DNA from: Amoebophrya sp. A120
Lineage: Eukaryota; Protista; Dinoflagellata
Length of the DNA stretch: 64,000 nucleotides
Assembly (NCBI GenBank): GCA_905178155.1
Contig: CAJINV010000014.1
Location: 1,629,984-1,693,983 of the forward strand
Reading direction: 5' to 3'
In this document: positions 1-33,510 of the stretch, piece by piece
Layout: the number at the start of each line of letters is the position of its first letter
Position numbering within the stretch: position 1 is the first letter of the stretch
Position numbers and translations under genes: made by a program
The notes under the pieces: model-generated
What the model was told of the DNA's origin: nothing
Database searches by the model: none
What the model saw: only the letters and a program-made list of their open reading frames with translations

Positions 1-423
1 ACGAATTTTGGAACTCCGTTGTATGAATTTTGGAAATCCGAAGTACCGAATTCAAAAAAAAAAATACCGAATTCAAAAAACATCACCATGACTCTCGCAA
101 AAACCGAAGATGATTTTTGATGAACTCGAAGGTGATTTTTGATGAACTTGGTCATGATTATTTTGATGAACCCTAAAACCTAAAGTCATGATCCACCTTC
201 CGAAAGCCATGATCCACCTTCCTGAAAGCGCCCTACGACATATCACCGATCACTTGAGTTCCAAAATTAGTACATCTGAATTCTTTGCACCGATACATAC
301 CTTGGTGACCGACAACGACCTTTCTTCTCACCACGACCGACGACGCAAATTCCGCGGAATTGGTCAAATCTGACCAATTTGAATAGTTGTGGTTTAAAGC
401 AAAACCACAACTATTCGCATTTT
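1..423 (+). repeat. Left inverted repeat (possibly truncated by the window edge)
   Basis: Matches the reverse complement of 15764-16186. Sub-repeats: TACCGAATTCAAAAAA x2, TGATTTTTGATGAACT x2 (111-126, 133-148) plus a variant, CATGATCCACCTTCC x2 (187-201, 208-222). Confidence 0.97.
381..416 (+). other. Putative YR crossover site (lox/FRT-like), left copy
   Basis: GAATAGTTGTGGTTT-AAAGCA-AAACCACAACTATTC: perfect 15-bp inverted arms and an asymmetric 6-bp spacer, at the inner edge of the repeat. Function is inferred. Confidence 0.6.
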
Positions 424-1843
424 TGATCCTCTTTTACATTTTCAACTACCAACAGTACCAGTGGCAGTGACACCTTAAAACCAAAATAACAAGAGAAACC
501 AAATCAAGATGTAGCGGTCGCCCGTACTCAACTCCCACGCTAAGGTTGAAGCGCGTTCGCATTGTGTGGACATGATTAGACGACGAAGGCAGACAGCAAA
601 AATCGGCGCGGGGCTACTGCTACAGGTTATGCGTTTGCTCTTTTTTACTTTTGTTTTCCTTCTCCATTCCCATCTGCTTTTGCATTTGCAAACACAGCTA
701 TTAATATTGTGATACTTTTGATATTGCAATTGCATTTGCAACTGAATTTGAAATTGATGAGAGCACCATCTCCGCCTCGCTGCAAAGTTTTTTTTGTACT
801 GATCAAGATCATCGGGATCGACTACTGCTACTACTACTTCTTCATGCCTCAATATGTTGATCAAAACGAAGCTCATGACTTATGACCAACGCAATCAGGT
901 ACTCCTGCATGGCGCGCGTTCTGGATGGTGCAGCTGGTGTTGGTCGTGGTGTACTTGGGCCAAATCTTCGGCGCAGTTGAACTATCTCGATGGCATGACT
1001 CGCTTCCGCTGGGATGTTGCCACGGTGTTTGCGCGTTTACTTTTCAGATGTCGGGAAGTGAGGTGGATGATGATGTAGATGAGGCGTTGTTGTCTTTAGC
1101 ACAACCTTGACGCCAAGAGTTTTTTGTTTGATGTGAGTGAGAGCACCGCCACACACTGCGACGTGGTGGTGATAGATTGCAGCGCGTGCGCGACGGCTAC
1201 CACTATATTTATTAGACTTTGAGCGCTAGCATGATCCTCTCCCTTAGACCATGGGCCCGTGAGGTATTGCTAGCGTGGTCGCGTTTATCGGTTTTTATTT
1301 GATCTCGATTTGCGTCATAGTCTTGGAGCTGTGCTGGTGTGGCTGGGGCGAGAGAGGATTTTTTGAGTGAGAGTCTGAGTCAGCGTCTACGTGTACGTCG
1401 AGCAGCATGATATTATTTCCCGTAAGCACAGCCGGAAGATGTTGTGCCGAGAGAACAGAGGATGAGGGAAGAGTCACACTGGCCTCGCACGTGTTGGCTA
1501 ATGTCGCGCGAGCTGCCGCTGCAGAGCGCAGCAGAAGAGAGCAGTAAAATCAACACAGCCAAGGAGTTGCTGGCGTCAGCTTTATGAGCGGGTAGTTTTT
1601 TAGTTGCGGCTGGTGATGTAGATTTTGGATCTTATGACGATGAGCGTGTTGCTGTGTTTGAGTGTGAGAGGAACGTGAAGATTGAGAGGTTATGCTGCCC
1701 TCAGCTGGACGCTTCGTCTCGTCAGTACTCGGCGTCTTTTCGTCGTCTACGTTTAGGCTTATGATGAACATGAGCATCAACACCAAGACCAATAGCGAGA
1801 ACTAAACGTAAAAGAATAAGCGTCAATATGTAAACGCACTACC

Positions 1844-4800
1844 ATGCCGCCCAAGAAAAAAGTCAAGCCGCCGGAGCGGCTTCTCCCTCCTGATTCTCCG
1901 AGTGCAGAAGAGGGCAACTTCCACAACGACATGGAGGAGCAGCAAAACCAAGGCGGAACTCAAATGCGAAACAACAACATCAACAACATGAGTCTGAACC
2001 TGAACATCGAGCCCAACATTCCTAACCACAACGACAACCAGAACCAGAGCCAGTACATGGCTGCGCGTTACACTTGTTGCAAACTTTTAAAAGGAGCAAA
2101 AAAATTAGCGGACGTGCTGGAGGTGCTTGACTTCGCGCAGCGTGACCTCCTCGGCTTCGAGGTCGGCGCATCTTCTTCGTCGAAGTTTCACAATTGGCAC
2201 AGGACCGCACCCCTTCCGAAAGACGAGTCCCTCAGGAAAGCGTTCGTGCGCGAGTACGGCCATTCGGAAAGTAAGGGGTCGCGCAGTGAAGTTATCCGGA
2301 TGGGGTTTTTGGAGTTGAAGAAGCGGTACGACGTTTCCCGATTGCAGCTCGCGGAGTACATCGGACTCGGCCCCGACGGCATGGTCCACGTAGAGGATGA
2401 ACTGGAGGACATCGCAGGGGAGGCTGCGGTGCGGCGAAGCATTCGAGAGGAATGGAAGGAGCACTGTCGCTGGTCATATTATGACTCGCTAAAGACAGTG
2501 GAGGAGAAGGTAAAATACATCGAGTACGTGTTGGGCTGCTCGCGGGCAACTAGCGCGAAGAAGGTATTTTTTCTAACTCTATGAGAATTGTGCTTGTGGT
2601 TGTGCATAAGCATTAGCATTAAGCATTTCAATGCCGGTGCCGGTTACTATTGTATTAGTATTTTTTTTCCATTTCCTTTTCCATTTCCATATTCTAATTC
2701 TTTTTTGCTCATGACGATCGCCATGAGGAACAGGAGCACGAACCTGTCATGCAAGTATGAGTGCGCTAAGCTGGTAGTGCCCCTCAAGCTCATGCCAGCA
2801 CAGCATGGCTCAAAACCAGAGCCCGAGCATTGACCTACGCGTACATCTTCAACATCCTTAGACTTTACGCATCCTGAGGCGATGACTCGGGCTCGCTGAA
2901 GAGCGACGAATGAGTCTGATTCTGCCGCACATCTTGCGCTGCCTTTTGGCGATGGCTCTTGCAGGCCCACACTTGGCCTGAGAGTTAGACCCAGAGATAA
3001 GCATAGAGCTCCGAGGGGCTGGGGATGGGGTCTGGCAGTGTAACTGCGCTGCCAGTCATAGATATGCAGGCCTGCATGACTCTGGTTGCGCTCCTATGGT
3101 GGATGAAACTTGAAACACAAAACGGAACGCCATCAACATCAACTTGACTCGTAATCTGAAACCTCCTCCCTAATGATAATCAGGTGGCCCTGTTGCAGCA
3201 CCTTTTCGGCTGCGCTGACGTCTACAACCACCTATCTCGATTCGATAATGCCAAGCCAACCGCCGGAGAAACGACTTCCTCGAAGAGGAGAAAAGTAGTG
3301 CAGGTAGAAAATAATGTTTCCAAGGCGAAGATCGAGGACGAGGTGGAAAAGAATAAAAAAGCGAAGGCCAAGGACCAGGATGGGCATCGAAAATTTGCCG
3401 AGCGGGCGGAGGAGAAGATGCTGCGTGCGGTCAAACTGGAAGCAAGGGATGACTTCAGCTACATCATGGGTACTACCTTATCTCCTAGATGCTCATGTTA
3501 GTTTGTATCTCACTTCGCCGCTAGTGCCGCCGTGCTACCACATCAAGGCGAGGCATGCCTTTTGTCACACATTGCGTCGCGACCCACGTATTGATACTGC
3601 GCAGTGAGGGTGCCGGTCCGCCAAAAAAGACTGGGCGTGAGTGCTCAAGTCCACGTCCACGCCCGGGTCCGCCGCTATTGCATTAGAAATATTTTGTATT
3701 GCAGCTGTGCATGCCGATGCCCATACAAATGCATATGCATGATGTCGCCTGCACTTGGATGTATGAGTGGAAGATGGTGGTGCGGTAGTGGTGGCAAAGT
3801 TGCTGGCGGTTTATTGTGTTGTAGATGCAGAGTTTGACTTTCGCTTTGGTTCTGATGCTTTCGGTGATGCAAATCTTCAACCACATCTTAGCCTACTCCT
3901 CCGCTATACGAAAAAAAAATCTATTTCGCGCTCGCAGGTGACAGCGAGGCACGCGCAGAAAGCTCCACCACGCGGATGCATCAGTTTCTGAATCCGGGGC
4001 TACAGATGGGTGCAGCGGCTAACACATCCTCATCCAGCAGTAGCAGCACTCCCTTTCCGGCCCGCCCCGCGCGGTTGCGTCCAATAGTATTTTGCCGGAT
4101 CGGGCCAGACAATACAAACTTTCGCTCCGGCGACCTGATGAGTCTAGATCTGATGATGGCGCGGGGAGTTGCGAACCCAAAGACGAAAAAGCGGACAGTG
4201 ATGTTCCGCGGCTTCGCTCCGCCGTCGATAACAAGTGATCTGGGATGGAAGCAGGTTTTAGATCGTGTGTACCTGATGACCGGCTCGCTAGTGCCGCTGC
4301 CGGGAAGCACAACCAATCAGTTTCCCGGTGACCCCGTGTCAGTCATCAATGCGATAATCGACGCTGGCCCCGACATTTTGAAGTGCTTCAGAATGTTGAA
4401 GTACTACAGTGCCGCCTGCAATCAAATACGGAAGCAGCAGATAGCGGAAGGGCGGGAGGAAGTGTACGTGGAAACGTACGTGAGTGTCTATCTCTGCATA
4501 GCGCACCAATATCATTTGTTGACCGGTGAGCTGATCAAACAGCTTGAGCAGATATACCCGGGCTTCATCGAGGGCGTCCATGCAATCGAGAAATGCGCGA
4601 CGCTCTGGTGGAATGAAAAGGGCATCAAGATCAGCAGGACGCTGGAACACCGACGGATGTCGTTGCAGCCGTCGCTGGAGAGCATGTTGGCGCAAAAGGA
4701 TCAAGTGCAAGCAGCACTGAAGGAGTTGCGCCTGGACAAGCGGAAGGACAGTACCCGCGCGACAGCTGAAAAAGGACACAATCATGGGGAGAGTGAGGAG

Positions 4801-7134
4801 TTTTGGAAGGTGTGTGAACTAGCAGCAAAAGCAGTGCAGCCCGTGCATCACGCATCCGCCCGCGTGATGCGCGACGTCCAGGTCTCCACCAGCAACATGG
4901 AGCTCAGCCAGATGTTCCGCTTGCGGGCACGCGGAACAACAAGTAGTGATCAAAAACAACTCCTCCAGAGCTTTATCCTCTCGTACCCGACCGACATCCA
5001 GGGACTGAGTTTGATCTTAGTCTCGTGCTTCCGCTTACCGCGCCGCGAAGTCCAGTTGTACGTGTTTCCGTGGTTACTGAACTGGTTCACTTCTCCTCTG
5101 CACATAAAACCAGTTGCGAAAGCCCTTCTTGCAGCTGACCTCTCCCAGCAGTGCGAATTTTTGAAGTTCATAATCGACAACTTCGGCTCTGATTTGGTTG
5201 TGGCCGCGAACACCGGCGTTATCACGGACGAGCTGTACCCGGTTATAGCGGGGAACAATGCAACAAACAGTCCGAACGCAGTCGTGCAAGAGAGCTACCA
5301 CAGCACAACGCAGAACCACCGCAACAACGCGCCGGCAATGCAGCAGTTCCGTAGCGGCGTGCGGACATGCCTTACCCGCACAGAACTGCCCGATTACGAG
5401 GAATACAAAAGTCAGATCGAGCGACGGCATGAGCAGTATGACGCGCGGCGCAACACCTGTAAGGAGTACTGGGCGGGCGAGGGGGAAAAAGATTTTTTGT
5501 TTCACGAACCTCCAGAAGGCAGTCTCCACCCGTACCTGGAAGCAGCAGCAATTGAATTCAAACGGCACCCGGATAAGAAGGAGATCAAGAAATCCGTCCG
5601 CAGTGCCAGGAACTTCAAGCTCGGCGTTCCGTTTTTTACCAATCGCGAGGAAGGCTGTGTTGATCCAGCCATTGAAGACGTTTTTGAGGAGGAGGCGCCG
5701 TCGATGTACAAGTACTTCCTCGGCGAAAAAACAACAATGTTCGACCTGGATTACTTGCAACTCGGCGACCTGGTGCAGAAGAAGATACCAGTTGCGTCGT
5801 TGGATACAAGCAGAAAGAAAGAAAAAGCGAAAGAGAAGGAGGGCTGGGATGATGTGCGGTTCGTGTACCAGCAGCGTGACATGAAGGGGAACTTGCAGAA
5901 GTGTTTTCCGATCGCGTTTACGTATGAAGGACCACAGCCCGGAAGTGCGGAATGGTTGAAGAAGTATCCGGACCCGACGTTGCGTCCGGGAGTGACAACT
6001 GTGTCTGGATTCAGCGTCGGGCGTACGACCACCGTAGCAGCAGCCCGTGCTTCTGGGCGCGCCGAGCAGCAGCAGTCAGGCGGTGCAGGAGCAAGTGGCT
6101 CTGCAGCAGCGAAAAACGGAAAGAATGGGGTTAAGAAAAAAGCACAGGGCTCGGCTCCAGGTGCTAGCGCGACCGCGCAGTCTGCGTCGAGCTCCAGTTC
6201 GGCCGCGAAGAAGGCCGCATCAGGTACAGGAGCGGACATTCCGACCAGACTACTTTACCCCGACCTCGAGGCATACGCCTTGTCGATGGACGCCACATTG
6301 ATCCGCAGTGTGAGCCATTGGTCTACGCGCAGCAACGGCGATGCGCTCGCCATGACGTCGTACCTGACGATGAGGTCCAACAAGGTGGCTCGCGCGTACT
6401 GGTACAGTAACCACGTGGTGCTCTTTGTGCAGAAAGGCGACTGGGTCGAGAAGCGTGTCCAGCGCGCAAAACTCATCTCCGCGAAAGCCATCGCTGACGT
6501 GGATGTCATGAAGATCAATCTGCGAAAGCAGCACAAAAAGGGAGAAAGAGAAACCCGGGAAGATGCTTGGTTGTCGTACAATCAAGACATCGCTGTTCCA
6601 GAACGGCGGTACAGTGAAAAGATCGGCCGCGTGTATTTTATCCTGCGACCGGAGAACGGGACGTGGCACGCGCGGATCAAGCCGGACGATTTAACGGACG
6701 ACCCGCTGATGTTGAGCTTGCCGATGGTGAACGAGGAGTGGGATGAGGAAGTTGAAGAGGAGATGGAGGAGCCGGTTGTTGTGGATGCTGATCTGGATGA
6801 GGCGGGACTCGCTGCAAGCCCAAGGGCTAAAGCGAAGGCGCAGGCGAAGAAAAAAGCAAAGCACTTTGGTGCGACTTGCAGCGGGCGGGTGATCAGCCAG
6901 GTAAGCGTGAAGGAAGCCCGGGTGCGACTAGTGAAGAAGGTTTGCAAGCGGTTGTTCGAAACCTACCCGAAGGGAAAGGTAACGGATGAGGATGAGAACC
7001 GTGCGTGGGCGCACGTGATCCCATACGTGCGATCAACGCGGAAGTACGAGAAGCTTGCGGAAGATTCTTCTAGCGATGAAGATGAGCGGGAGTATCATGA
7101 AGAAGATCGCGCGAGACAGGTGCGAGCGGCGTAG
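1844..7134 (+). CDS. Element gene A, hypothetical ~1400-aa protein; exons 1844-2563, 3184-3469, 3938-7134
   Basis: Three ORF-track segments join in frame through two GT-AG introns (phase 0: AAG|gtat...atcag|GTG; phase 1: ATGG|gtac...cgcag|GTGAC). Basic NLS-like start MPPKKK. No family recognised. Confidence 0.75.
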
Positions 7135-8001
7135 GGTGTTGTTTGTATGCCGTAAGATAGTGACAAATATACGTCTGCAACAGTTTGTCTATGTCCTATC
7201 ATTTCTGTTTGTATACAGTCCAAGACTACCTTGAAGAACTACCCCTTCTACATGTGTAACATGAAAATGAATCCATCCCATAGTGTATAGCCTTCTATGT
7301 GGCACGTAGCTGCGTTTGTATTCACAGCTTTGATTGATATCTAGATTAGCGCTTTGTATTTGTGTCTGTGCTCAGCCTTAGCCTTGTATGATTGTGCTGA
7401 GGAAATAGAAAACAAAATATGAAAAAGATGATCATCAGCTTCAACCTAGAAGCTGGAGCAGTGCTCCTGTGTTTACGTGCGGCACCTGCACTACGCGTTT
7501 GCTGTCGGTAATTTGCAAGTGTATGGCTGCGTCAGCAAATGCAAGTGTGAGAGAATGAGGTAGCGTTGTGATCAGCTGCACTCAGTCGAGAAATTGAAGA
7601 AAACTACAACACGAAGCTCGCCCCCGCAGTTCGGAAATAGCGACAAATGTATTTGCACCCAACCCATTTCACTTTGTTAATCAGCATTGAAATTCGTATG
7701 ATCTGCAGTGAGAGAAGTGAAGTTCAAAGCTCCCCCTGATGCTTTCTGGCAGACAATCTGCAGTGAAAAGCCCATCCGTGAAAAAGAAAAATGCCCAGGA
7801 TTTCAATACAAGCTCGTCCCCAAATCAGGAGAAATTCCCCTCGTGATCACTTCCCAGATCCTGCAGCACAGCCTTCTTTTCCTCTAGGTTCATCTCGAAA
7901 TTGCACAAGAAATACAAGCACATCATCAGTAAATTCAACAAAATCATGAAGAAATACACAATGATCACAACGAAAAAATGATAACTTTTCATTGAAGAAT
8001 A

Positions 8002-8202
8002 GTGAAAATTTACTTGATTTTGGCAATGTCAGAAATCCGCGAAATCGAAACTTTCTACTTTCTATCAAATATTCTTGACTTTTCCTTGATTTTTCTATTT
8101 TGCATGATGTGATTTCTAGAAAATCAAAGGAAAATCAAAGGAAAAATCGAAAGTTTCGATTTCGTTGATTTTTGCATCATCAAAAACAACTTGAATTCTT
8201 CA
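8002..8202. repeat. AT-rich imperfect palindrome at the element midpoint
   Basis: Perfect 16-bp arms CGAAATCGAAACTTTC (8040-8055) and GAAAGTTTCGATTTCG (8149-8164), with further imperfect pairing inside and outside; centre ~8102. Confidence 0.8.
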
Positions 8203-8307
8203 TATTTTTCCTGTAAATCATCATCTTTTCTTTGTTGAATTTTCCCAAACTACAGGTCGTGTGACAGTTGAGAGAGTAGTTTTCGAACCTCGCATTCCAA
8301 ACAAAAA

Positions 8308-10178
8308 ATGACGCAACCCACTCATCACGCTGATGGTGGTGTCCTGCGCCAACAGCTGGACGACATGATCAACCTCATGGAAAATGTGCCTACGCAGGCC
8401 GAAGTTGCTCAAATGCAACGGAACTGGCGCGAGGGAAACGTCACGAAAGGTACTAATGATTGTGATGCTTTTTTCTACATTGCGTCTATCGAAACACAAT
8501 GCTTTCGCTATAGTAGTAATGTATTTTCAATGTAAAATAAGCTTTTTTCTATAGAAATTTTGTTGCAAAAGTCGCGTTCTTGTATAGAAACTCATGGCAA
8601 TTCATTGTATTTTTCTTCAAAACAGCCGCATACATGCGCTTTTGTCATCGGTTTCGTGACCATCGTTTTGCCGAGGCGTACCGGATGCTGGGGTCGATGC
8701 TCGCCACCTTCACCGAATCGGAATTCAACGTCCTCCGATCGGTGCAGCATAAAAATTTTTTGCTGCAGGCCATGCGGGAAGGATCGTTTATTTTCCGGCA
8801 GGGTATTGAGACTACTTTTCCCAAATGCTTTTACACACTCGAATGCGTAATCGTTCCGGTTGCTAGTCCGCTGTTCCCCGCCGGTGGCTGCTTCATCTTC
8901 ACTTCCTCCCGCCCCCGTGTGCTGGCTTGGAAGACAATGCAGTACAACATCCCCGGCAGCACCATCTACGGCAGACGGTGGCTGTTTCCGGGCGACCAGT
9001 TTGCCGTCTCGTTCCAGCGGGTTCCGAAGAAATCTTGGTGTCCGCAGCGCATGCGCAATGCTGCGAAGCCGCGGCGAAAGGCGCGATCCTTCATCGACAC
9101 CTTGGAGTTGCTGACCAAGCAGTTCCCGATGGAGAACATCTTCGGCCCGCTTGAGACGAAGCCTAACTCCCCGGCTGCTGAAAACGAGCGCCTGCTGCGG
9201 AGCATGAGCACCATGTTGGAGGTGCAGCTGTCTGCTGCCATCGGTGTTCCTCCTTCTTCCATCACCGCGCAAAAGGGATTGCAGTACAAGAGCAACATGG
9301 GCGTCAAGAACAACATGGGCGTGCACCGCGCCCATCTGATCATGGTGAAAAGCCTAGCTCGCGACTTGATTCTTGGGCGGCATCGCTGCGTCCCCCGGGA
9401 ACAGCGGGATAGTTACGAAGCCCTAGCAACCGGAATATTTCCTGATGTAGCAGAAGAAAAATTTGACTGGATTCCAGTGCATCCCGATACCTTCAAAAAA
9501 ACAGCTGTCGTCGCGGTTTCGACGTCCAAGGGTTTGGAGGTGATTTCGGGTTGGCATCAGTGCTCCGCCGCGAAAGAGTTCTGTGTGGAGAACAGGGCTG
9601 CGTACGAACAATTGGGCTTTGCGTACTAATACAAATATTTTTTTTATACATCTTCGTATACAAAAACAAATTCGCATACAAATACAAATACTTTTTTTCA
9701 AGCAGAACCAGACACAAGTGCACTCTCATGCAAAGAGTAACTTTGGTGTGCAAGCACAAGCAGCATGTACATGCAGAGTAAGAATATGAATAGCAACCAC
9801 CTACAACAACATCAACATCAACATATACATCACAGAGCGGAGATTTTGCTGGAAGATTTTTACCAGTACCAAGAATTGGTCCAGACCTACGTGAGGCTCG
9901 CAAACGAGGGCACTGCCCATACCCTCAGTACCACGTTTGCCGAAAAGTGCCAGACCGTGTACAACCAGGTGCCGAGACAGTTTGAAGTTAATGATTTTTA
10001 TCGACAGGCTGAGCGCTATACTAATGATGACATTGGGCAATTTGTGAACCGATTTGCAGGAGGGCAGCGTGCCACGCTGGACCCGAACGATATCGAAATG
10101 TTTACTGAGCGGCCCACTATCGGGCCCGCGACAGCGCACGCAGAACAACTTATGAGAAACATGATGCGTCGCTTCTAG
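8308..10178 (+). CDS. Element gene B, hypothetical ~493-aa protein; exons 8308-8449, 8626-9622, 9836-10178
   Basis: Both introns begin GTACTAAT and end ACAG; phases 1 and 2 join ORFs 8308, 8580 and 9765 in frame. No family recognised. Confidence 0.75.
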
Positions 10179-10548
10179 GCTGTCTCAATGTCATCTGCAG
10201 CAACGAAGTAGAGACAAGCGCAACTATTCCAAGAAGCAACTTCATCTTTCACTACAGAGCTTACAGCCTCGCATTCAGAATTATCACTGTCAATACGATG
10301 TAGCGACGACGTAGATTGCGAGCACTTTGATTTGATTATGATAATGCTTATGATTTTGACTACAGTTACATTTACAGTAGCGTTTACGTAGATACTTCTG
10401 ATGGAACAGTCGCTGTCGCTTTCCAAACTTTTATTTTAGTTTGCGTATTCCTTGGGGGGCAAAGTCAAAGACATCACAACCACAACAAAGTCCTTCTGTG
10501 ATAATACAAGAACGAACGATGCCAAAGATGGTGATGAAATAGACATTG

Positions 10549-11451
10549 TTATAGCTTCAGCTTTGAAGCGGCTTCCTTTTGAAAGCTGAAGTCATTTGCG
10601 ATGTATCTTGACAATGTCTCCAGGCTGCAGTGCCCCGTAAGTGCCATAATTGTCGCAAGGGGAACGCCCTTGTTGCAAAGGTCCGTTGTTAGCGACCTTC
10701 GTGGGGTATGCGAAGTAATAAGCTCACGCGGGCAAGATTTTTTACATCGTGGCGCGAAGTCTTTTCTGACTGCGCGAATTTTTTTTTCGAAGTTCTCGTA
10801 CCCGAACGAGAACACCGGATCGTCGTCGCTCTTTTGCTTTTGAAGAAGGGCAATCATCTCCTGCAGAAACTGCTTTGTTTCTCCAGTGGGGGATATTGCG
10901 ACGTTCTTCAGCTTGCCGCGCGAGCTGTCTTGTGTGGCCAGCTTGGAGTTCCCCACTCTTACTCGATCGATCGCGAGGTCGCCTCGCGTTATCGATCGAA
11001 TATCCATGCCGCGCCTACCTGTCAAGCACTGCAGCACCCAACACAATCGAAAGTACTTCCCCGCGTTTGCTTTTCTCCCCGTGCTCTCCTGTAGTGCCTT
11101 GCCGAAGCGGGCGCAGTCCTCGATCTCAAGCGAGCCTGATCGCTCTTCCCCGTCTGATAGCAGAACGTCTTTCTCCTTCTTCTTGTGGGTAACCGACTTG
11201 ACCACGTGTTTCGTCGGTCGGCTCGCTTTCCCTACTTTTGCTTTCGCCTTCGGACTGGCCTTCCCTGTTTGTAGTGCCTTTCGCGAGCGAAGCGGTAAAG
11301 AGGCCTTCTTCATTGCACGGTCACGGAGGCGCATTGCTGTAAAATAAAACTTCTTGTTTGTCCTACCACTCCCACGCGCGCTTTTCGATTTCAGCTTCCG
11401 CTTCGCGACAGGTCGTGCGCGACTTTGGGGTTGTGCCTTTCGGGTTGGCAT
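10549..11451 (-). CDS. Tyrosine recombinase (phage integrase family), ~300 aa, intronless
   Basis: Catalytic motifs in order: LTGRRGMDI (Arg), NSK (candidate Lys), HTPRRS (HxxR), GVPLATIMALTGH (His), SLETLSRY (Tyr). Probable ATG at 11451 (MPTRKAQ); Lys/Arg-rich N-terminus. Confidence 0.93.
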   Translation of the reverse strand: MPTRKAQPQSRARPVAKRKLKSKSARGSGRTNKKFYFTAMRLRDRAMKKASLPLRSRKALQTGKASPKAKAKVGKASRPTKHVVKSVTHKKKEKDVLLSDGEERSGSLEIEDCARFGKALQESTGRKANAGKYFRLCWVLQCLTGRRGMDIRSITRGDLAIDRVRVGNSKLATQDSSRGKLKNVAISPTGETKQFLQEMIALLQKQKSDDDPVFSFGYENFEKKIRAVRKDFAPRCKKSCPRELITSHTPRRSLTTDLCNKGVPLATIMALTGHCSLETLSRYIANDFSFQKEAASKLKL

Positions 11452-11677
11452 GTTGCTCGTGCTTCCAGCCGTGAGAAGCGAGTGGGCATTTATACTTGCT
11501 TTGATGAAGGGGAAGGTTTGGCAAAGGTCTGTGTAGTGATGTCTTTGGAAGAGCAGGAATAGTTGCGATTGTAGCTGCGCCACTACACCATCACCAATAC
11601 CCTAAACTAATTCAAACAAAACTAAAACCTTCAACACGAAAATAAAAACATAACAGTTGTGGACTGAGTATTTGGAC

Positions 11678-14425
11678 ATGAAGCGCTCGTATGGGACCAC
11701 CGGGCAGACTATGCCGTCGGAGTTTGAGTTTTTCCAGGTATGTTTTTTGTTGAATAGCAGTAGCTGTAGCACAAATAATAATTATAATAAACAAGCGACC
11801 TTTCCGTTTCCAATATGCACGTGTACTTAGATGCAGCAGTGTCTCTGAGAATTTTTTGCAAGATGGAGTCAAAATCTAAATCATGAACATGATGTTCATC
11901 TTTTACAATTATGTCTCTTCTACATCAAAAAACAGAGCCGGTGCGAGTCGTGCAAAACCGCCACGGAGCCCCAGATCATCCTGCAAGCGAAGCGCGAGTG
12001 GGGTATGGCGTCCAGCCACTGGCTAACGACGATTCGCCATCACGGCACGCAGGAGCATGAGGGAAAATACGCTTCCTTCTGCAAGTATTAAAACTAAAGT
12101 GCTTTGATTTTGCAGTACTATCTTGCGGCCCTGCGATAGACGTTTGTGTTTTTATTTGGCATAAAGCACACAAGCACAACTCTATCGCAGGCCCGACGCG
12201 ATCGAGACACCACACGGATCCGTGACTTATGTAGCGACATTTTACTGCCGGAGGTGCCACATCTTGTCCTCAGAAGAGTTTCACAAGCCGTTGTACTTGG
12301 AAAACTACTCCAGGTCCAAACTGTTTGCCGCCGGTTTGCGCTTTGTCCGTGCGACGGCGCGCGACTTGATCCTGCAGGCCTGCTTCAAGTTCATGCTGGA
12401 GTACAACATCTCCCTGACCCTGCGCCAGATCGAATCGTTGAAGGCCTTCGTGAAGATGAACCACTACCGCGACCAGGCGGCCAACCACAACGCCAACAAA
12501 CTGATGCTGCATGTCTTGTGCCAGACCGCCAAGAACGCGCTCCGCGGGCGCGTCCCGACTTTGGAGGCCGGACAGACCGGCGTCACGATCGAGGTAAAAT
12601 TACGATTAGATGTTTATGTAGATGTGAGTGTGGGTTTGAATTTGAATTTGAGTTTGTGAGTGGAGGTTAAAATGTGAGTTTGTATGTGGAAGTGAATGTG
12701 AGTCTCCGTGTGATTCTGAATTCAAAGAACACGATGATCCGCTACCGACTCTACCTCCAACTAGTGCCGTTGCATCATGATGTCCTTACGTTTTTTCATT
12801 CAGCAAGAAGATCATGATCAGCACTTGTTGTTCATGTGCGTGTTTATGTTTGAATCATAACACTATGATCACTCACAACAGACCTGCCAATCCACCGAGG
12901 ACATTGTCGTCGCCACGACCCCCGAGCAGGCCGGCTTGAAGGACTCCGACCCGAGTGCGTGGTGCTTCGGGCGACTCGAGATGTTGGAAGAGCGGCGGAT
13001 CAACAGATTCGTCAAACTCCTCGAGTCGATGATCTTTTTCCGCATCGCCACCATGAAGGGTGAGTTGGCGGGGCAGATGAATGTGATCCAGGGTTCCGGT
13101 GTGGTCACCCCCAAGATCAACCCGTCCGAAGGTCTGCGCTGCATCCTCGACGGGGACGGTTTGGGCGTGCTCGACGGATTGGCGTGCATTGTCATGGGCA
13201 AGAAGACCTCCCCGGAGGTGGCGACGATCAAGCAGGAGATCAAGACGTTCACCGAGCGGAAGGCGCAGGACAAGAAAGACATCTTGAAGAAAGCGAAGAT
13301 GGATGCGCAGGCGTTGAAGACGCAGAGTCAGCGCGCCGCGAGAGTCAACGTGGCCGTCGGGTTGGACCAGCAACTCGAAAACCTCGAGGACGAAACGCAC
13401 CGCAAGCTCGTGCAGCACGACGCGGAAGTGAAGGAGTCCACCCTGCTGATGACGGACCGGCTAAAACAGGCCGAGGAGACCAAATACTTCCAAGTGAAGT
13501 GCCGGGGACAAACGCCGACCGTACGTTTTTTAATTAGAACTTTCTGTCCGGACACGATTAATGGAAACATTGGACTCATCGTATATTCTACACATTTCGT
13601 GTTCAAGTAAATCGTCCTCAACGTAGTTTTTCTTCCCGCGTAATAGCTGTGCATGTAGTTGTAGACTTACAGATCTTCATGTTCATGTAACAGCCATCAT
13701 CTGAGAATGTATCATCGTGCTTTGCTTTGGCTTTTCAATTTTAAAATAAAACTTATCAGTTACCGGGGGAATGCCTCAGCTTGGACACCGCGTACTACAA
13801 CTGGCTGGACGAGTTGTACTACAGCTCCAAGACGGAGTGCGAAGAGCCGGACGTCAAAAAAATGATGATCATCCCCGGCCGCTCCAAGATCCACATCATT
13901 CTGAAGAACAAAAAGAAAGAAATGGATGAGTGGTTCACTAAGGTGGTCGAAAAAGAGTTTTGGGTGACCTGCAAGGCCGGTAAGAAGATCAAGAAGATCA
14001 TCTGGTTTCCCCAGGAGTTCACCATCAACGAGGGGAACATCATCATCCGCTTCAAGGTCCCGATGGCCGTCGACACGGGCTCGGACTCGAACAGCGAGGA
14101 GGAGGAGTACAACCTGCAGATGCGGGGCAATAAGAAGAAGGCGATGGACAAGTTGTTGAAGACCGGTGCGCTTTTGTACAGTACCACCGACGAGGAGGTG
14201 ATCACCGGTGCCAACGCGCAGGCAAGCAGTTCTTCTTCGTCCTCTTCCTCCTCCGGTGCCAACGCGTCTTCGTTCAACCTGCTGCCGAAGAAGCACAAGC
14301 GCAAGGAGGACGAGGGCCGGTTGTTGGACGACGACTCCGAGAATGACAAGGAGAACAAGTCCCCGAAGAACAACAACACCAAGCGCAGGAAGTCTACGGA
14401 TGATATTGATGAGAGCCTGTTGTAA
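11678..14425 (+). CDS. Element gene C, hypothetical ~638-aa protein with two CxxC motifs, coiled coil and charged tail; exons 11678-11737, 11936-12084, 12191-12593, 12882-13520, 13760-14425
   Basis: Four GT-AG introns (phases 0, 2, 0, 0) all join in frame; CESC and CRRC motifs. An in-frame acceptor at 11656 suggests a possible further upstream exon. Divergent from the YR gene. Confidence 0.72.
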
Positions 14426-14756
14426 TTGTAAAACACATCTTCATCGGTTATTCTGATCATAGTTGTGGATGTGGTTGTCGTTATGTCTCGGTCTACCTAG
14501 TCTTAGCCATAGCCACAGCTTCCTCCCTGCAGCTGATGTGCGCGAGGTTCTTCTAGTTTCTCGTATGGAAAAATAACAACTCTAATTCGAACAACAGCAA
14601 CAACGCGAAGGCGAAGCTTGTCGGTACTACAATAAGCGCTGCTACTTAAAGGAAGACAAGCAAGTTTATTTGTCACGCATCACCACCTCCTCCTTTATAT
14701 CTCCATGTTGCGCGAGAGCTACTCGTAGTTCAAGTTGCAGCGTGGAGATGATTCGT

Positions 14757-14868
14757 TTTATATCGAGCTCATGCCAAGAGGCGACGGCGAGCTCATGGTC
14801 ATGCCAAGAGGCGACGGCAATTTATATCGAGCTCTCTTTCATACAAGCTCACGCCAAGAGGTGACGGC
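14757..14868 (+). repeat. Three ~20-bp direct repeats (TCATGCCAAGAGGCGACGGC) plus TTTATATCGAGCTC x2
   Basis: Copies at 14769-14788, 14799-14818 and 14849-14868 (last with 2 mismatches). Confidence 0.85.
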
Positions 14869-15763
14869 GTGAGTTTGATTCTTCTGTCGAGCACGTCAGC
14901 ATGATTTTTTTGTTTCGCACTACCACGGACTATTTTTGGAGGATCGCGCGTCCGTCTTTAGAAATTGTTTTCTATTTCTTTTAGACAGATGATAATAGGG
15001 CGACGCTACCTCTCCTGCGGATTCGAAGGCAATGCTTCCCTTCGTTCCAAGAAACTTTTTCATCAGATAATGAATATCTTTAACATCATGCGACGTGCTC
15101 AAAGTACAAAAATAAAAATACAGAACTTTATATTTGATAAATTAATATCTACATCGAGATCTTTCTCCGCCGGTGTTCGCGCCGGTTTTCTTTTTATGAG
15201 CACTACACGTAGAGGTAATAATATTATAATTATATTTCTTATCAGACATTCGAATCACCAATTTTTATCCCGCCACTTATAGTGGTGGGCTTGACGACAC
15301 GACTTGCTTCGCGAAGCCAGCAGAGACGAAAGACTCGTCCTAGTCTCTCCTGGTCTTTGCAACTACGATTTATACCCATCCGTTGAGTGAGAGACTTGTT
15401 GTTTATCCACTGTAGTGCCCGCACGATGAAAAACGACGCTACGAAGAAGACGGCAAAACAGACGATGTAGAACAATCATCCTCCTCTTCGGTATTAGAGT
15501 TAGACTATGAATAAAAATGTATGTGCAGTGACAGGTGGTGCCTACCTGCCGTGAGAGCGCACCTGTAGGAGGCGGTTGCTGCTTTTGATTCTCAAGGAGA
15601 CGCTGTTTAACAAACCATTTGTTTTACAAACAAGAACGAGAATCCTTCTGCTGGCTTGTATAGCAGCAGACTTGTATCAACGTGTCGATGAAATTAAAAA
15701 AAACCGAATCATCACATCGGTCACTCGCGCCGTGGCATGCGAGCCTATGTTCTTTTTAGCACG

Positions 15764-16186
15764 AAAATGCGAATAGTTGTGGTTTTGCTTTAAACCACAA
15801 CTATTCAAATTGGTCAGATTTGACCAATTCCGCGGAATTTGCGTCGTCGGTCGTGGTGAGAAGAAAGGTCGTTGTCGGTCACCAAGGTATGTATCGGTGC
15901 AAAGAATTCAGATGTACTAATTTTGGAACTCAAGTGATCGGTGATATGTCGTAGGGCGCTTTCAGGAAGGTGGATCATGGCTTTCGGAAGGTGGATCATG
16001 ACTTTAGGTTTTAGGGTTCATCAAAATAATCATGACCAAGTTCATCAAAAATCACCTTCGAGTTCATCAAAAATCATCTTCGGTTTTTGCGAGAGTCATG
16101 GTGATGTTTTTTGAATTCGGTATTTTTTTTTTTGAATTCGGTACTTCGGATTTCCAAAATTCATACAACGGAGTTCCAAAATTCGT
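15764..16186 (-). repeat. Right inverted repeat
   Basis: Reverse complement of 1-423; identity ends at AAAATGC (15764) on the inner side. Confidence 0.97.
15771..15806 (-). other. Putative YR crossover site, right copy in opposite orientation
   Basis: GAATAGTTGTGGTTT-TGCTTT-AAACCACAACTATTC; the spacer is the reverse complement of the left spacer. Confidence 0.6.
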
Positions 16187-16358
16187 ACACCGAATACCTT
16201 TGCATAATCGCCAACTTAGCACTTTCTGATGTCCAGGTTTCTATATTTTGTCCCTTCATATACTATGTGGTCCACCAACATAATTCTACTTCAAACGTCG
16301 AGGTCTACTACTTCTTCACCCGTCGGAAAAGAAAACGCCGTGGAGCTGTGCTGTCGAG

Positions 16359-19300
16359 ATGAACCGGAAGACTGTTCATTTCGGCTTGCCGTTGCCCTAC
16401 TCAACCGCCCTGCTGCGGATATTGATATTTTATTCCGGTCCACGTGGGTCACCGACGTTTTTCTTGAGGAGTTCGGAGGTGTTGATAACCACACTAGCCA
16501 CTTCACCACCACTTTCCCGACGAGAAGTATTGGAAGCAACTTCAGTATTGGAAGCAACTTCGAGAATGTCGTCTGAAGACGGTTCTGAGGCTGCCACTTC
16601 AACCACGACCGGGGAGCAGCACATCACCGCAACGACCCGTGCAGCTGGCAGGCTGTTGTTAAGGGTTGAAAAAATTAAGGTTTACATCAGGGTTTTGGTT
16701 CGTTGTTTCATAGATTTCGCAGCCCCCGCCTTTGTCCCTCTTCGCACCGCCCGGCAGTTGTCCAGGTGGTGCCTTGGTTCGTATTTCGTCTGGCTGGCAA
16801 AACCAAAGCCGCCGGGCCTTCAGAGCTGAAGGCCCTTCTGCCTTGATGCCGATCCAGATTTTGTGCGAGGTGTCGCCACAATTCTGACGAGCGCACGCTG
16901 GCTGATTTGGGGGTCAGCATTTCCCTCGAGATCTAGGCTGGCATCTACGCCAGGCAAGCCGCCTCGCCTCGCGCGTTACTTGGTACGCGGAGCAGGCTGC
17001 CCGGCTTTTCTGCCTCTGGATCTCGTTCCGCAATCTTGCGGGACAACGTTCGGAGGCAGAGGTAGATCACCACCCTGGCCAGCCAAAGAGATGCGTGCCC
17101 CTGTGATGGCTGCCGCCAAAGCGGCAGGGTTTTGGTCAGGGTTTTGCTCCGAAAAGGCTCACCGCAATCGAAGCAAAAGCTTATTTTTTTCGGGAGCTTC
17201 CCCCGAGCTAATAAAATCAGTTTTTGCTTTCGCTTTGCTCTCCTTTTTGTCGCCGAAAGTGTGGAGTTGTTCTGGGCGGGTTTGTTCGCCCATATCGTGC
17301 CCAGGCAACCTGCCTGGCCTTGCAAGTTACTTGGGGCGAGTGACAGGGCGCCCGGTTGCTCTGCCTCCGGATCTCGCTCCGCAATCTTGCGGGACAACGT
17401 TCGGAGGGAGAGGTAGATCACCATCCTGGCCAGCCACAGAGATGCTTGGCTCTGAGGTGTCCGCCGTCGACCTCATCTTCAAACCAAAACAGCACAACAC
17501 CTCATCTTCAAACCATCCGGGGAGCAGCACGTCACCGCGACGACCCGTGCAGCTGGCAGGCTGTTGCAAAAGGAACCCGGACCACGGCACGCGGACGGAA
17601 TGGTTCTCGTACATAGAAGTAGAACTACATCAGATGACTACGACATCAATGCGGATGGTGCTGATGAGCCACGAAGCGGAACAAACACCAGGGGTAGTAT
17701 TAGTAACATCAACAGAGGGAGAATACGTGCGACCAGAGAAGCAAGAAGTGGAAGTGCTGCGGCTGACTCGGTGGTCTTTTTGGACGAATCTACTACTCCG
17801 CAAAAACTGCGAGGGCAGCAGCAGAGGGTGCAGGTGGTCATGGATGATCACGATCAGATCAAATATGTACTCAATTATCCTGAGCAGGAGGTATGAATTG
17901 CAAATATGTCTGGGTCTGGAAGAGCCATGCTGTTTTTGCATGACGCAGAAGGTCTGGCATGCAAGCTCTAGCATCACAGGTTTCGAGAAGCTTCCGCAAT
18001 GCCGAATCCGCATGACAAGTCCCCCGCTTTGGGGACAGAAAGTGGGCAGCTTTTGCCACCTATGCATGAGAGATTTTTCTGTGTTCGGAAATGCGCATCA
18101 CAAGTTTGTATTCTTCCAGACCCAGACATATTTGCAATGCATAGGAGGCGGAAAAAAACGATCCTCATCGCGGGCCCCCTACAACGACGACACGGACAAC
18201 GGAAACCACAAGGAGAACCCCCTCGCCCGAGATGAAAATAACGCATGCCCGGCGCGGCACTAGCAGCACTACCACCACCAGATCTCGAGCAGCCGCAGCC
18301 CAACTCGGCTTGCCCGCACCATCTCCGACTCCCGTTGTCTTGTTCGAACCCCCGCCGCCGCCAGCGCCCGGCCCCGCTCCCGCCGTGGCTCCCGGCAAAG
18401 CCGCGGGCTACGACTACAAGGGGAACGCCTTTTGCATGTGTGGTGGCGATTGGCTGAACTGCAGGGGTCCCCCCCGACACCCTTACTTTTCGCAGCACGC
18501 CGACGCTAAAGTACCCTCCGCAACTACGGTGCAGGCCTGCGGTGATGCGTGTGACGCGAAAGTGGATAACTGTGCCGCCTTTTCCTTCGCGCAGTCTCCC
18601 TTCAACACCCACTGGCAGGACACGCCATGCATTCTCTTTCTCACCGACGGAGCAATGATAGCGCGCGTGGACGACTCAAGCGTGTACATATCCATTGAAA
18701 ATATCTCTGGGTCTGGAAGACTCATCTTCCAGAACTCTTAGAGTTCGGCTTTGTCATTCTAGGTCCTCTGGCTGAAGAGCAAGTAGAGAGACACAAAAGC
18801 GTGAGCTTTTGCATGAGCAGCAAAAGCCGCCCACTTCTGGACTACGGCACTATTTTTCATTTTCGTACAGGATAGGCATAGGCATTGCGGGCCCCTCTCA
18901 ATAAAACTTGTGATGCCACAGCTCGCACCAGTTCAGGCCTTGGCTCGAGGTGATGATGCGAAGCCTGCAAGCATGTTGGCAGATCTTGACGTGACCTTCC
19001 GGACGCAGAGGTATTATTTGCGCTGGATACTAGTCCAGTGCGAACGCTGTGCACTGCTTCCGGAGGAGAGATAAGTGCTACAAAATGAACGTTGACATCA
19101 CCGTCGATAGCAACACTGCTAGTCGGTACGCCAAAGCTTCTGGATACCAAGGGCAGACTCTGCCCTATTACGTCGCCACGACTCACACCACGCTGTCGTA
19201 TCCTGCCAACTACGGTGGTTGCCACCGCCTGTGCATTGAGCAACCCGAAGTGACACACAACAAGCTTCTCGTCTCGGACATCAGCGATAACGCGATTCGC

Positions 19301-24231: not shown

Positions 24232-27200
24232 ATGTTGGTATCTCTGAACCAAAGCACCACGACCGCGGAGCGCTCTCTCGCGGCAACCACATCACCCGCT
24301 ACGACATCACCCTCGTCCACGTTCCTCCCCTACCTGTTCCTCACCCTTTTTCTCCACCTGGCTTTCGGCCTTTTCCAGGTTGCTGGCCGGTATTTGCAAA
24401 CAGTCGCTGGGCTGCAGGCGTTTTACCTGCTGGGTGGATTGAATTTTGTCAGCTGGACCCTCATATTTCTGAGTTGCTGTGTACCGTCTTCGTGTCTTCT
24501 AAGTGGGAAAAATAAAGCAGATGTAACTTCGCAAGAACCGCAAGCAGCACAGACGATCGTGACCACCACCTCCACTAGTACAGGACTGCGACTTTCAGGA
24601 ACGCATCTCACATTTTCCGGTCCACCAGCTCGTCGGGGCAGCAGTAGGAGTGGTTCTGCTTCTATCTTCCGGAACAAAAAATCAATGTCCACCAAATCGG
24701 TTTGGTCCAGAAGAAGTGGCTCGGGGCGCGTGGACGTACACAGATATTCATATTCTGTGCAGCGGGACGTCGAGGAAGATCTTCGAGATGTAGAAGAAGT
24801 AAATGACCCTTGCGTGGTGGTTGACGTTGAGGACCACGGAGGTGCTGATGCGTCTCAAGCTGCAAGTGCAAATATCGGAAAAATGCTTGATGTTCCCGTC
24901 GTTCCTACGGCGAAGAACAAGATGAAGCGTTTGAATTTGACAAGTTACTCCAGTAACGGGCCCCCAAAACAGGAGCAGAAGAAACTTGAAAAAAACCTTA
25001 AAAAAACTTGAGCATTTTTGATTTATAACAATTTAAAAAGCAAAAACCAAGAGGGGCAGCCGGAGGAGAAAAAAAACGCACGGAACGGACGCGATTTCCG
25101 GTTTCTGGAAATCGCAATCGCGCCGGCGATTTTGAAAAACTAAGCGAGGTGAACGGCTGGCGCAGATTCAAAATCAAAGGACTCGAACGGGAGGAATTTT
25201 TTTCATTTTATGGCGCGCCAAAATCCACATCTGTGCTGCAGGAATAGCCATCCATAATTTTCGCGCGAAGGCGCGCCACTTTCAAAAGTTTACGAGTGCG
25301 ACCCGGGGCAGATATTTTCCGCAGACATGGGGCAGCATTTCGCACGAACTTGACGGCCGCGGGGCGCGGTTCTTCTTCATTTAGGTGGGGGTCGCCTCGA
25401 TGCATTCACTGCGCCGCGTGCGGGGGTGTTCAAAGTCCCTGCCTCGCACGGGCGCCGGCTGCCGGGGTGCCCGAGCTTGGCGGGCGGTGGGGCTCTGGCC
25501 CTTGCGAGGCCTTTTTGTAGTGCCGAAGCGGCCCCACTCAGAAGGCTTGCCGGCACAAAGGGCGGGCGCAGCGGGCCGTCCTTCCCGGGCCCCCCCGGAG
25601 GCCCTTTCATAATACACAAAGCCCCGCGGCCAGCGGGACTCTGCGCAAGCAGCTTCTGGCCCCCTAGGCTTGTACGCTGAGGGGCGCCCACGCGCGTGGG
25701 CAGGCGGCCTCTTTGTTCCCCGCGCCGTGTTTGCGCGGGTGCGATCCGGCCCGGAAAATGAAGAAAATCAAAAGTGCCACACCATCGGTCGGAGGGTGTG
25801 ATACTTTTTGCCGCGGTGCTGTCATGCATGCAAAAAAACACGCAAAACCCGCGTCGACCATGCCATTGGCTCTGGGGTGTGATACTTTTTGGCAGGATGA
25901 GTTCACGGAGGCCGAAAATGATGAAAGCGACGCCGGCCATGCCGTGGGCTCTAGGTTGTGATACTTTTTGCCAGGCTGCTACGGCGTTCAAACTTGCAAC
26001 CCGGCGAAAGTGTTGGCGAAAATGCGTCACCTCCGCCGAAGCATCTCGGCAGCAGACGAAAAAAACTTGGATCTGCCGACGTTTTTGGGCCAAAATCTGA
26101 AGGGCTCCGCCCACCATACCATTGGGGCTAGCTTGCGATGGCTTCCAAGCACGCGACCCGGCTTGCAAGTCTATTCCAAGTTTATTTCACGTTTTTGCTG
26201 CGATTTCGGCCGCCCGCGGGCGTGCCCAATTTTGGGCTACTTCCTGAGGCCTGTCCACGGGCTGACGGAGCCGATTTGCGAGTCGCAAAAGCGGCGGCGC
26301 CTTCCGAAGGCGCCGGCCGAACTTGGGAAGGGGGGTAAAATCCTGACTTTTGCTGGTTTTCTTCGCCAATGGTGCCGCCGTGGTAAAAAGTATCACACCC
26401 TGGCGCCGCTTGCATGGCGAACGCAGGTTGCCGCGATGGCGAAAGCGAAAACCTTCGCCCGCGTGCCCGCCCTGCGAAAAAGTATCACGCCCCAGCGCCC
26501 ATGGTATGGTCGGTCGGGCTTTCCGCCATGCCCCCCGGCTGCTTGCTAAGCACGCCGCGCCCGCTGGCGCCGCCAGCCTGGGCGCGGCCGGCCCCCTCGC
26601 TCGCCCCGGCGGCCCACGGTGTCCCTTCGTGATTTCTACCGGCGCGCCGCGGCCGCCCCCGGCCCATCGATCGGCAGGCTGCGCCGGCCATCCGCCAGGG
26701 GCGGGCACCGACAAGCCCGGCGCACGCGGGTGCGCTGGGCTATTCTCAACAAAGAAGAGGACGGACCAGCGCGCCACCCCTAGCGCCCACCGTCGCCCGC
26801 CCGGGCGGGCGCGCCCCCTCCGTGTGGCCTGCCGGCCTTTTTGGGGCATCAGGCGGGCCCGGCGTTCTTTTCGGCATTGGCGGCGTGGGGCCAGCTTCTC
26901 GCCAGTGATCGGGCGGATTGATTAGTGGCGGGCGCGTTCTGCTTTTTCTAGGTATAACGAAAAAGCAGCGAAGGCGGCACCCAAAACAGTCCGCGCCCGG
27001 TCTAAATCTCGACAATAGGCAGTTTTGGCTGGAGCGGCCAATTGTCCGGATTCAGATCGTGTTTTGATTTCAAAGCAAAGCGGCTGGGGTTCCTGGCATA
27101 TTTCGCGAAAAACAGTACGAAGAGGCACAGAAAGCGTCGCGCCGTGCCATAGCTTGTCCTCCTGTTGCTGGTTTCAAAGTTGGGCGCGTCACAGGTGCGC

Positions 27201-32960: not shown

Positions 32961-33510
32961 ATGCCATGGCCAGACATGGAAAGAAAGAAAGAAAGATGGT
33001 TGATTTTTTCTCATAAAAAAATAAATTATAGAATTTCTAGGATTTGGATCGATGGATGATTTTGAAAATTGAAAATCATGATAATAGAAAATTTCGAAAA
33101 GAAATTATCATCAAGATTTATTTCCATTCTGAGTTTCGATTTTCCGAAAAAAAATTAAATTCCGATATCAATCCAGATCTTGAATAGAATTCCAGAAAAG
33201 AATCCAAATTTGCCTCGATTCTTGAAAAATCAATGAAGATTCGAAGAATCTCGATCGAGAATGAAAGACAAAAGAAATAAAATTGATTTTTTCTTTCTTT
33301 CTTTCTCTCTCTCATGTCTGGATATGATGACAAATGTTCAAACCCCTAAAAAATCCATCATTTTCATCTCATATAGGTCGACATGGAAATTCATGGATTT
33401 TACCATTCAAATAATGATTTTTTTATCCTTATATTCTATTGAATATTCATATCATTGATTCGATGAGAATCTCGATAGAAATTGAAAAATCTCGATGATG
33501 ATCTTTAGAA

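Follow-up and report, generated by a model that had tools for sequence, protein, structure and literature searches.

The 2-micron plasmid (Flp/FRT) has a recombinase site in each of its long inverted repeats, a tyrosine recombinase (YR) and a partition-type gene. Transposons of the hAT superfamily produce target site duplications (TSDs) of 8 bp, or of 5–7 bp in hAT5, hAT6 and hAT7. The hAT5 families have 5-bp TSDs and are nested among animal hATs (PMC12730594). Tec1 and Tec2 of Euplotes and Sardine and Thon of Paramecium have terminal inverted repeats (TIRs) of 425 to ~700 bp (palindromic in Sardine and Thon) and combine a DDE transposase with a YR and unknown open reading frames (ORFs); the YR of the Tec and Sardine elements has been proposed to resolve transposition intermediates (PMC3464196, PMC3212892). 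In this study, we analyzed a 64,000-nucleotide stretch recorded under Amoebophrya sp. A120 (hereafter the window; contig CAJINV010000014.1, positions 1,629,984–1,693,983 of the forward strand), which opens with a 16-kb element bounded by long TIRs. The element contains a predicted hAT-like transposase gene (gene A), a YR gene and two further spliced genes (B and C). We regard it as a member of a far-diverged lineage of hAT-like transposons, equipped with a recombinase module.

Overall structure and integration of the element

The two arms of the element (positions 1–423 and 15764–16186) are 100% complementary across 423 nt in a self-comparison of the window. In the DNA runs X1 and X2, the TIR was recovered as one 497-base unitig (15764–16260) with a depth of 79 (2x), and the interior (394–15793) as one 15,400-base unitig with a depth of 41. 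The right flank contig (16231–16686) has a depth of 40. The bin depths at the outer end of the TIR require a second outer contig with a depth of ~44 (28 in X2), which is the left flank. X1 and X2 represent one DNA sample, possibly the window's own source, and they test the assembly and not other isolates. The TIR at 2x branches into two different 1x flanks; therefore, the element is integrated and single-copy in the DNA sample, with neither fold-back nor amplification. It is ~16,334 bp long and ends at 16260, where the unitig branch places the TIR tip; the first 74 bp of its left arm lie ahead of the window. The features of the element are as follows.

1..423, plus strand: left TIR (423 of 497 bp) without its outer 74 bp, which precede the window (self-comparison and unitigs)
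381..416, no strand: perfect palindrome located at the left TIR's inner end, with an asymmetric spacer of 6 bp between arms of 15 bp (palindrome scan)
1844..7134, plus strand: gene A, predicted hAT-like DDE transposase, 1,400 aa; exons 1844–2563, 3184–3469 and 3938–7134 (three-exon GT-AG model, predicted introns)
7967..8235, no strand: AT-rich imperfect palindrome between genes A and B, ~270 bp, 68% self-complementary (sequence)
8308..10178, plus strand: gene B, predicted ParB/sulfiredoxin-fold protein, 259 aa; exons 8308–8449, 8626–8802, 9505–9622 and 9836–10178 (GT-AG model)
10549..11451, minus strand: YR gene, 300 aa, intronless, antisense between genes B and C (PF00589 and motifs)
11678..14425, plus strand: gene C, helical/coiled-coil, 638 aa; exons 11678–11737, 11936–12084, 12191–12593, 12882–13520 and 13760–14425 (GT-AG model)
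15764..16260, minus strand: right TIR, complete, 497 bp, at 2x depth, reading TATGAAGGGACAAAA inward from its outer end (unitigs)
15771..15806, no strand: 15-6-15 palindrome, second copy in the opposite orientation, located at the right TIR's inner end (palindrome scan)
16261..16265, plus strand: TACTA, the first five bases of the flank; predicted TSD if the element makes 5-bp TSDs (inference)

The left TIR contains subterminal direct repeats, namely GAATTTTGGAA and ACCGAATTCAAAAAA twice each, a GATTTTTGATGAAC-like sequence three times, and CATGATCCACCTTCC twice.

A reading of the window from its letters only (the sequence-only reading) had placed the element at 1..16186 between perfect inverted repeats of at least 423 bp. 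The repeats are as perfect as described, although they extend to 497 bp and shift the end of the element to 16260. The suspicion of a fold-back at the contig end was settled by coverage, and we rejected it on the 2x depth of the TIR and its two separate 1x flanks. That reading had further proposed an autonomous element, recently active or homogenised by recombination, or else an integrated plasmid. A real, integrated and probably young mobile element is retained from this proposal, whereas an amplified plasmid in the DNA sample was rejected (interior depth 41 versus 40–44 in the flanks).

Two further observations concern the regions adjoining the TIRs. Between the left TIR and gene A (475–1800, minus strand), short open stretches alternate with simple-repeat spacers, and they may belong to a fourth spliced gene; they gave no match among the fetched homologue proteins. 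At 15629–15703, the RNA run X4 contains ~54 reads of a short plus-strand fragment with a template-switch oligo at its 5' end and an A-run at its 3' end. The fragment stops where the genome itself is A-rich, immediately interior to the right TIR, and may represent one amplified molecule or internal priming. The RNA runs X4–X8 gave no coverage on the genes of the element; since X4–X6 and X8 barely cover or miss the flanks too, these runs are uninformative on expression.

Gene A as a predicted hAT-like transposase

Gene A contains D393 (nt 4108), D477 (nt 4360) and E787 (nt 5290), as well as a CxxH motif (C522–H525, nt 4495–4506), which reads CIAH and follows the second D. R574 is followed by R575 (nt 4654) at the position where homologues carry W. 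The spacing between the His residue and this position is 50, and the corresponding spacing in Hermes (H268–W319) is 51 (PMC4763223). The CxxH motif is also common to MULE transposases (PMC5225508). A long C-terminal region is kept across the family. A regular expression for a BED finger-type motif found none in gene A.

A full HMMER scan of 1.84 billion representatives with exon 3 yielded 13 homologues (best E-value 1.5e-62; seven below 1e-30). Ten homologues were looked up; nine are gene models of Amoebophrya sp. AT5.2, and the tenth clusters with an AT5.2 member. The AT5.2 proteins are 22–36% identical to gene A and comprise ~10 diverged paralogues (P0005–P0019) without informative Pfam matches, several of which are fused to ParB-like and C-like sequence in the models. 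Judging from these gene models, the gene A family is multi-copy and diverged in AT5.2. In an alignment of 11 homologues, two of which (P0006 and P0019) come from one 90% cluster, the first D (RxGPD) and the E motif (ExxxS) are each aligned in 8 of the 11, and the second D is aligned in 10. CxxHQ is present in all ten homologues covering the region. The tryptophan of the RW position is found in nine of ten homologues, while R replaces it in gene A and in P0016.

We examined the fold with an AlphaFold model of the 527-aa core (mean pLDDT 69.7). The model has the strand order of an RNase-H-like domain, followed by a helical insertion. The top eight Foldseek matches are all Hermes chains (best E-value 2.5e-4, probability 1.00). 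VIA also ranked Hermes first of 48,161 chains (Z-score 11.4, 298 aligned residues, rmsd 6.6), ahead of the RIG-I helical domain (7.8; an unrelated helical match), the P element (5.0) and ISCth4 (4.8). The aligned range covers residues 8..405 of the model and 171..566 of the Hermes chain, and the range ends would put D393 and E787 at Hermes 180 and 572, which we take to be its catalytic D and E. Atlas returned only hAT/DUF659/ZBED1-type families for the core (0.87–0.90, the strength of a lead). No viral fold matched the core at an E-value of 0.001 or below. Gene A is predicted from this model to be a DDE transposase of hAT-like fold. We use the term hAT-like, and not hAT, because the domain HMMs fail and the BED motif is absent. 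The present copy may be impaired because of the R residue at the position of the conserved W.

Tyrosine recombinase and its putative recombination site

The YR ORF matches PF00589 with an E-value of 1.1e-10 and passes the Pfam cutoff. Weaker matches to XerA/XerC and phage integrases were found in HMM libraries including PHROGs. The R, K, HxxR, H and Y residues of the catalytic site are intact and also occur in two homologues. The protein consists of a basic, low-complexity N-terminal region of 100 aa followed by the catalytic domain only. A word-limited protein search found only two relatives, a protein of Amoebophrya sp. AT5.2 (51% identity) and a JGI/MMETSP cluster (49%); no ciliate YR was among the matches. 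A YR profile gave only weak matches to Xer and integron integrases, with a spurious top match to EGFR, and profile scans showed no match to DUF3504 or DUF3435. No YR-bearing locus was found in metagenome contigs or viral contigs.

Sites of tyrosine recombinases typically consist of palindromic arms and a spacer. The 15-6-15 palindromes at the inner ends of both TIRs are likely recombination sites of the YR, as suggested by their layout; just one other perfect palindrome with arms of at least 13 bp and a 6–8 bp spacer occurs in the window. Contigs with at least 80% similarity hit the TIR solely at the palindrome, have unrelated flanks, and amount to ~13 copies' worth of extra depth. The simplest reading is that sister elements retain the palindrome while their remaining sequence diverges. 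Alternatively, these contigs could represent small palindromic repeats. A search of viral contigs for the palindrome gave no match. The YR and the 15-6-15 site together form a compact candidate for a eukaryotic site-specific recombination system.

Genes B and C

Genes A, B and C gave no matches in Pfam, NCBIfam, PHROGs and PDB sequence searches, and word-based protein searches with exon 2 of gene B and exon 4 of gene C also gave none. Homologues of B and C surfaced as C-terminal extensions of AT5.2 models that start with gene A-family sequence. Gene B matches P0019, P0015, P0011 and P0009, and gene C matches P0011 and, more weakly, P0015. Without the segment 8803–9504, gene B is collinear with P0019 (106 bits), and gene C scores 70 bits against P0011. 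Against the same set of 21 proteins, 200 shuffles of each gene scored no higher than 29 bits, and 162 control ORFs from the flank no higher than 27 bits. Because B-like and C-like sequences lie behind the transposase in the AT5.2 gene models, the A-B-C order is a conserved module that is present in a second Amoebophrya.

The segment 8803–9504 of gene B (702 nt, with GT-AG ends) is open and in frame, and the protein would have 493 aa if it were kept. Its absence from the homologues suggests that it is an intron. Such an intron would have coding potential of its own; alternatively, the segment may be an exon that is retained or a domain that was inserted.

To study the fold of the B/C product, we modelled the B/C-like part of P0011, a homologue from AT5.2, in place of the gene B protein (mean pLDDT 48, and ~70 in the first 110 residues). 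ParB, Noc and sulfiredoxin make up the top 11 Foldseek matches of the B-like domain (E-values 0.008–0.19), and VIA matched PadC with a Z-score of 8.6 over residues 1–118 of the model. Gene B is predicted on this basis to be a protein of ParB/sulfiredoxin fold. The VIA results were otherwise dominated by coiled-coil matches, and no fold was assigned to gene C. The B-like and C-like parts are contiguous in P0011 and P0015, whereas the antisense YR gene separates them here. The YR gene either lies inside an intron of one B-C gene or was inserted later.

These results clarify the gene content proposed by the sequence-only reading. Its three large spliced genes were recovered as GT-AG models with predicted introns (1,400 aa for A, 259 or 493 aa for B, and 638 aa for C), and its YR is intact by both profile and motifs. 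The stated lack of a reverse transcriptase (RT), pPolB, capsid or packaging ATPase agrees with our scans of the exons against Pfam and PHROGs, in which none was detected. The stated lack of a DDE enzyme is accurate for the HMM libraries (no Pfam match), but not when the motifs and the Hermes-like fold of gene A are considered. Consequently, the proposed DDE-free new class is abandoned in favor of a predicted hAT-like transposase, the kind of finding that the reading itself had named against its proposal. The structure search that it recommended for the three genes led to Hermes for A, to ParB, Noc and sulfiredoxin for the homologue of B, and to no fold for C. Its choice of Tec and the 2-micron plasmid as analogues is borne out by the palindromic recombinase-type site inside each TIR.

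Proposed mechanism and alternative explanations

The element is, with good probability, a cut-and-paste DNA transposon, in which gene A is the likely mobiliser and the YR likely acts on the palindrome in each TIR. Gene A would bind the TIR ends and the subterminal repeats, excise the element in the manner of hAT transposases, and reinsert it with a short TSD, probably of 5 bp. The YR would be an accessory enzyme, as proposed for Tec; it would recombine the two inverted 15-6-15 sites and flip the 15.3-kb interior, or resolve dimers or cointegrates between copies. The ParB-like B/C product may bind the DNA of the element as a helper. The repeat anatomy, integration, motifs, AT5.2 family and A-B-C order are taken directly from the data, and we infer from them every activity in this scheme.

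Several points weigh against this assignment. Neither exon 3 nor its 13 homologues match the hAT Pfam families (PF05699, DUF659 and BED) at E-values up to 1, nor does the core at up to 10, and gene A has no sequence match in the PDB. The TM-scores to Hermes are 0.26–0.34 over the query with 8–11% identity and a high rmsd, and the alignment holds only at the level of ranges. The catalytic E falls in a low-confidence segment of the model (405–444). The hAT-type excision yields no cointegrate, leaving the YR without an evident purpose. The YR is seen to accompany the transposase only in this copy, and AT5.2 gave one YR cluster versus ~10 transposase paralogues. All ParB matches have E-values above 0.001 and come from the model of a homologue, and gene B lacks the arginine of the ParB motif (GWHQ instead). 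Since the element is single-copy in the DNA sample, its movement can only be deduced. Finally, the conserved W is replaced by R in this copy, and a W-to-A mutation kills the transposition of Hermes and Muta1 (PMC5225508). In Kat1, the equivalent W is partly dispensable, with some activity left (PMC4763223).

The separation of the B-like and C-like parts by the antisense YR gene would also fit a composite origin, in which a YR cassette was inserted later between B and C of an A-B-C transposon, and the YR and palindromes are passengers or a separate Crypton-like element. The finding of a single YR cluster in AT5.2 points in the same direction, as do the related palindromes elsewhere with unrelated flanks, if these are small palindromic repeats. 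However, the palindromes are symmetric in both TIRs and do not bracket the YR gene, which is intact and has no flanking repeats. In addition, the AT5.2 models come from automatic prediction, which could have spliced across an antisense gene. We consider a composite origin unlikely; gene A remains the transposase under it, and hence it overlaps with the preferred explanation of a gene A-mobilised transposon.

A plasmid-like life cycle is less probable still. The transposase would excise the element, the ends would join, the YR would amplify the episome between inverted sites in the manner of Flp, and the ParB-like B/C product would partition it before reintegration. Recombinase-type sites in long perfect inverted repeats, a YR and a ParB-fold gene mirror the logic of the 2-micron plasmid, and the AT-rich palindrome between genes A and B might act as an origin or a partition site. 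However, the interior depth in the one DNA sample equals that of the flanks, and the TIR depth is about the sum of both flanks. A tip-to-tip joint is not listed in that sample, although contigs drop rare forms, and a replication gene was not found.

We give little credence to mobilisation by the YR with gene A as cargo or a decayed relic outside a working transposase lineage. The YR is intact, whereas gene A has R at the conserved W and its DDE region has no Pfam matches. However, the DDE, CxxH and W motifs are kept in a diverged multi-copy family with a Hermes-like fold, and the repeat extends 454 bp beyond the YR-type site to a TAT tip resembling those of TSD-making elements. The start of the window within the left TIR and the single copy of the element would fit an assembly fold-back or a set of single-copy host genes. 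Both can practically be dismissed, because the 2x TIR unitig splits into two flanks of 1x each and a single unitig of 15.4 kb spans the interior.

Possible relationship to Amoebophrya introners

The inverted repeats of A120 introners begin with TAT, followed by seven variable bases and at least three As, whereas A25 introners begin with TTA (PMC7789003). The TIR tip of the element reads TAT-GAAGGGAC-AAAA and has the TAT and the A-run in common with them. A loose scan of 16301–64000 found 21 TAT...ATA pairs versus 3–10 expected by chance. An exact 5-bp TSD accompanies 8 of the 21, with a one-mismatch TSD in four more, while none of 140 pairs from shuffled sequence has an exact TSD. No such pair was found within the element itself. 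The pairs with an exact 5-bp TSD are listed below.

17892..18143, no strand: short TAT...ATA inverted-repeat element with TSD GGAGG, outside the large element (scan and depth)
20334, 47872, 53152, 53877, 54081, 54439 and 54951 (to 55211), no strand: other TAT...ATA elements with an exact 5-bp TSD (scan)

The family of the element at 17892 has a summed depth of >100,000, and this element is a candidate non-autonomous partner of the large one. Published introner descriptions give direct repeats of 3–5 nt at variable positions. The host is most likely an Amoebophrya with A120-type introners, because relatives of the YR and gene A are found in AT5.2 and TAT...ATA elements fill the flank.

Farhat et al. 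2021 reported finding putative transposases in A25 (two) but not in A120, and considered general mobilisation by a transposase to be ruled out (PMC7789003). In the table of a 2025 survey, 56 of the 58 A120 introner families were assigned to superfamily 'Unknown', one to Mutator and one to Ginger (PMC12130899). We tentatively suggest that the gene A family may also mobilise the short TAT...ATA introners, although the odds are somewhat against it. The TAT and the downstream A-run are the only shared part, with the A-run offset by a single base, and a search for longer sequence identity between the introners and the TIR found none. Moreover, the Ginger-like family of A120, with a 5-bp TSD and TA/TA termini, is a rival mobiliser (PMC12130899). 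A bolder proposal seems unlikely to us as a whole, namely that a new hAT-like lineage, so far found in Amoebophrya only, is the missing autonomous engine behind the massive spread of non-canonical introns (introners) in this marine parasite and is paired with a 2-micron-like flipping or amplifying module consisting of YR sites in the TIRs and a ParB-fold protein. A transposase family that is invisible to profile searches, on an element whose TIR starts as the introners do, removes the argument that A120 has no transposase. It thereby becomes possible to test how tens of thousands of non-canonical introns arose.

Other features of the flanking region

A separate, moderately repeated element is located at 16681–17488 (depth ~200–1,800 versus 41). 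It has an internal 166-nt duplication and is bracketed by 57-nt repeats at 16609 and 17517, which are 91% alike. A GC-rich island (at most 65%) at 25380–26921 contains direct repeats spaced by 80 bp and nested inverted repeats (25764–25978 versus 26361–26523). The AT-rich stretch at 33217–33673 is a degenerate tandem array with a 21-nt period. On the minus strand, an ORF at 38471–39658 resembles a P-loop GTPase with a Cys/His-rich tail, and the two ORFs at 41669–42394 and 43029–43646 are related and Cys-rich, as judged by eye.

Comparison with known systems

Among other eukaryotic elements, Cryptons, DIRS/Ngaro/VIPER and Starships also have a YR, and one Crypton (MarCry) is reported to carry a DDE gene as its second gene (PMC13465315). 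Cryptons have no TIRs, unlike the present element with its TIRs of 497 bp. The RT/RNase H ORF of DIRS/Ngaro/VIPER has no counterpart here, as no RT match was found in the exons scanned against Pfam and PHROGs. The same scans gave no match to the capsid, packaging ATPase or pPolB of Polintons and Polinton-like viruses; on the structural side, the gene A core was modelled, and the gene C model was of low confidence.

The element resembles the 2-micron plasmid in having a recombinase-type site in each repeat, a YR and a partition-type gene. It differs in having a transposase and in being integrated at 1x; the single DNA sample showed no free form. Its YR matches the phage-integrase/Xer family, and its site has a 15-6-15 layout.

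The likeness to hAT transposons, represented by Hermes, lies in the predicted RNase-H DDE core with a helical domain that separates the second D from the E, the CxxH motif, the TIRs with subterminal repeats, and the spacing to the RW position, where nine of ten homologues have W and this copy has R. However, the element lacks a hAT Pfam match and the BED motif, and its transposase is 1,400 aa long, including an additional region at the C-terminus. The size of 16 kb, the 497-bp TIRs and the YR and ParB-like genes are further differences. Amoebophrya introners are short and non-coding, unlike this 16-kb coding element.

Neither a TIR element combining hAT and YR genes nor the gene A family of Amoebophrya was found described in the literature searched, a scope outside which Repbase and subscription papers fall. 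The closest match in layout is Tec/Sardine, with which the element shares a YR gene and long TIRs with an internal palindrome. The transposase of Tec/Sardine is of the IS630/Tc1 type with a short D-to-E spacer, whereas D477 and E787 of gene A are separated by 310 aa with a hAT-type insertion. The host group also differs, and the element has spliced genes and a ParB-like gene, the latter unmentioned in the available text of the Tec and Sardine reports. The layout parallels that of Tec/Sardine, with a hAT-type enzyme replacing the Tc1-type one. To our knowledge, the combination of a DDE transposase, a YR and a site within the TIR was known previously only with Tc1-type transposases, in ciliates. 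The same layout with a hAT-type enzyme and a ParB-fold gene suggests that this is a recurrent design.

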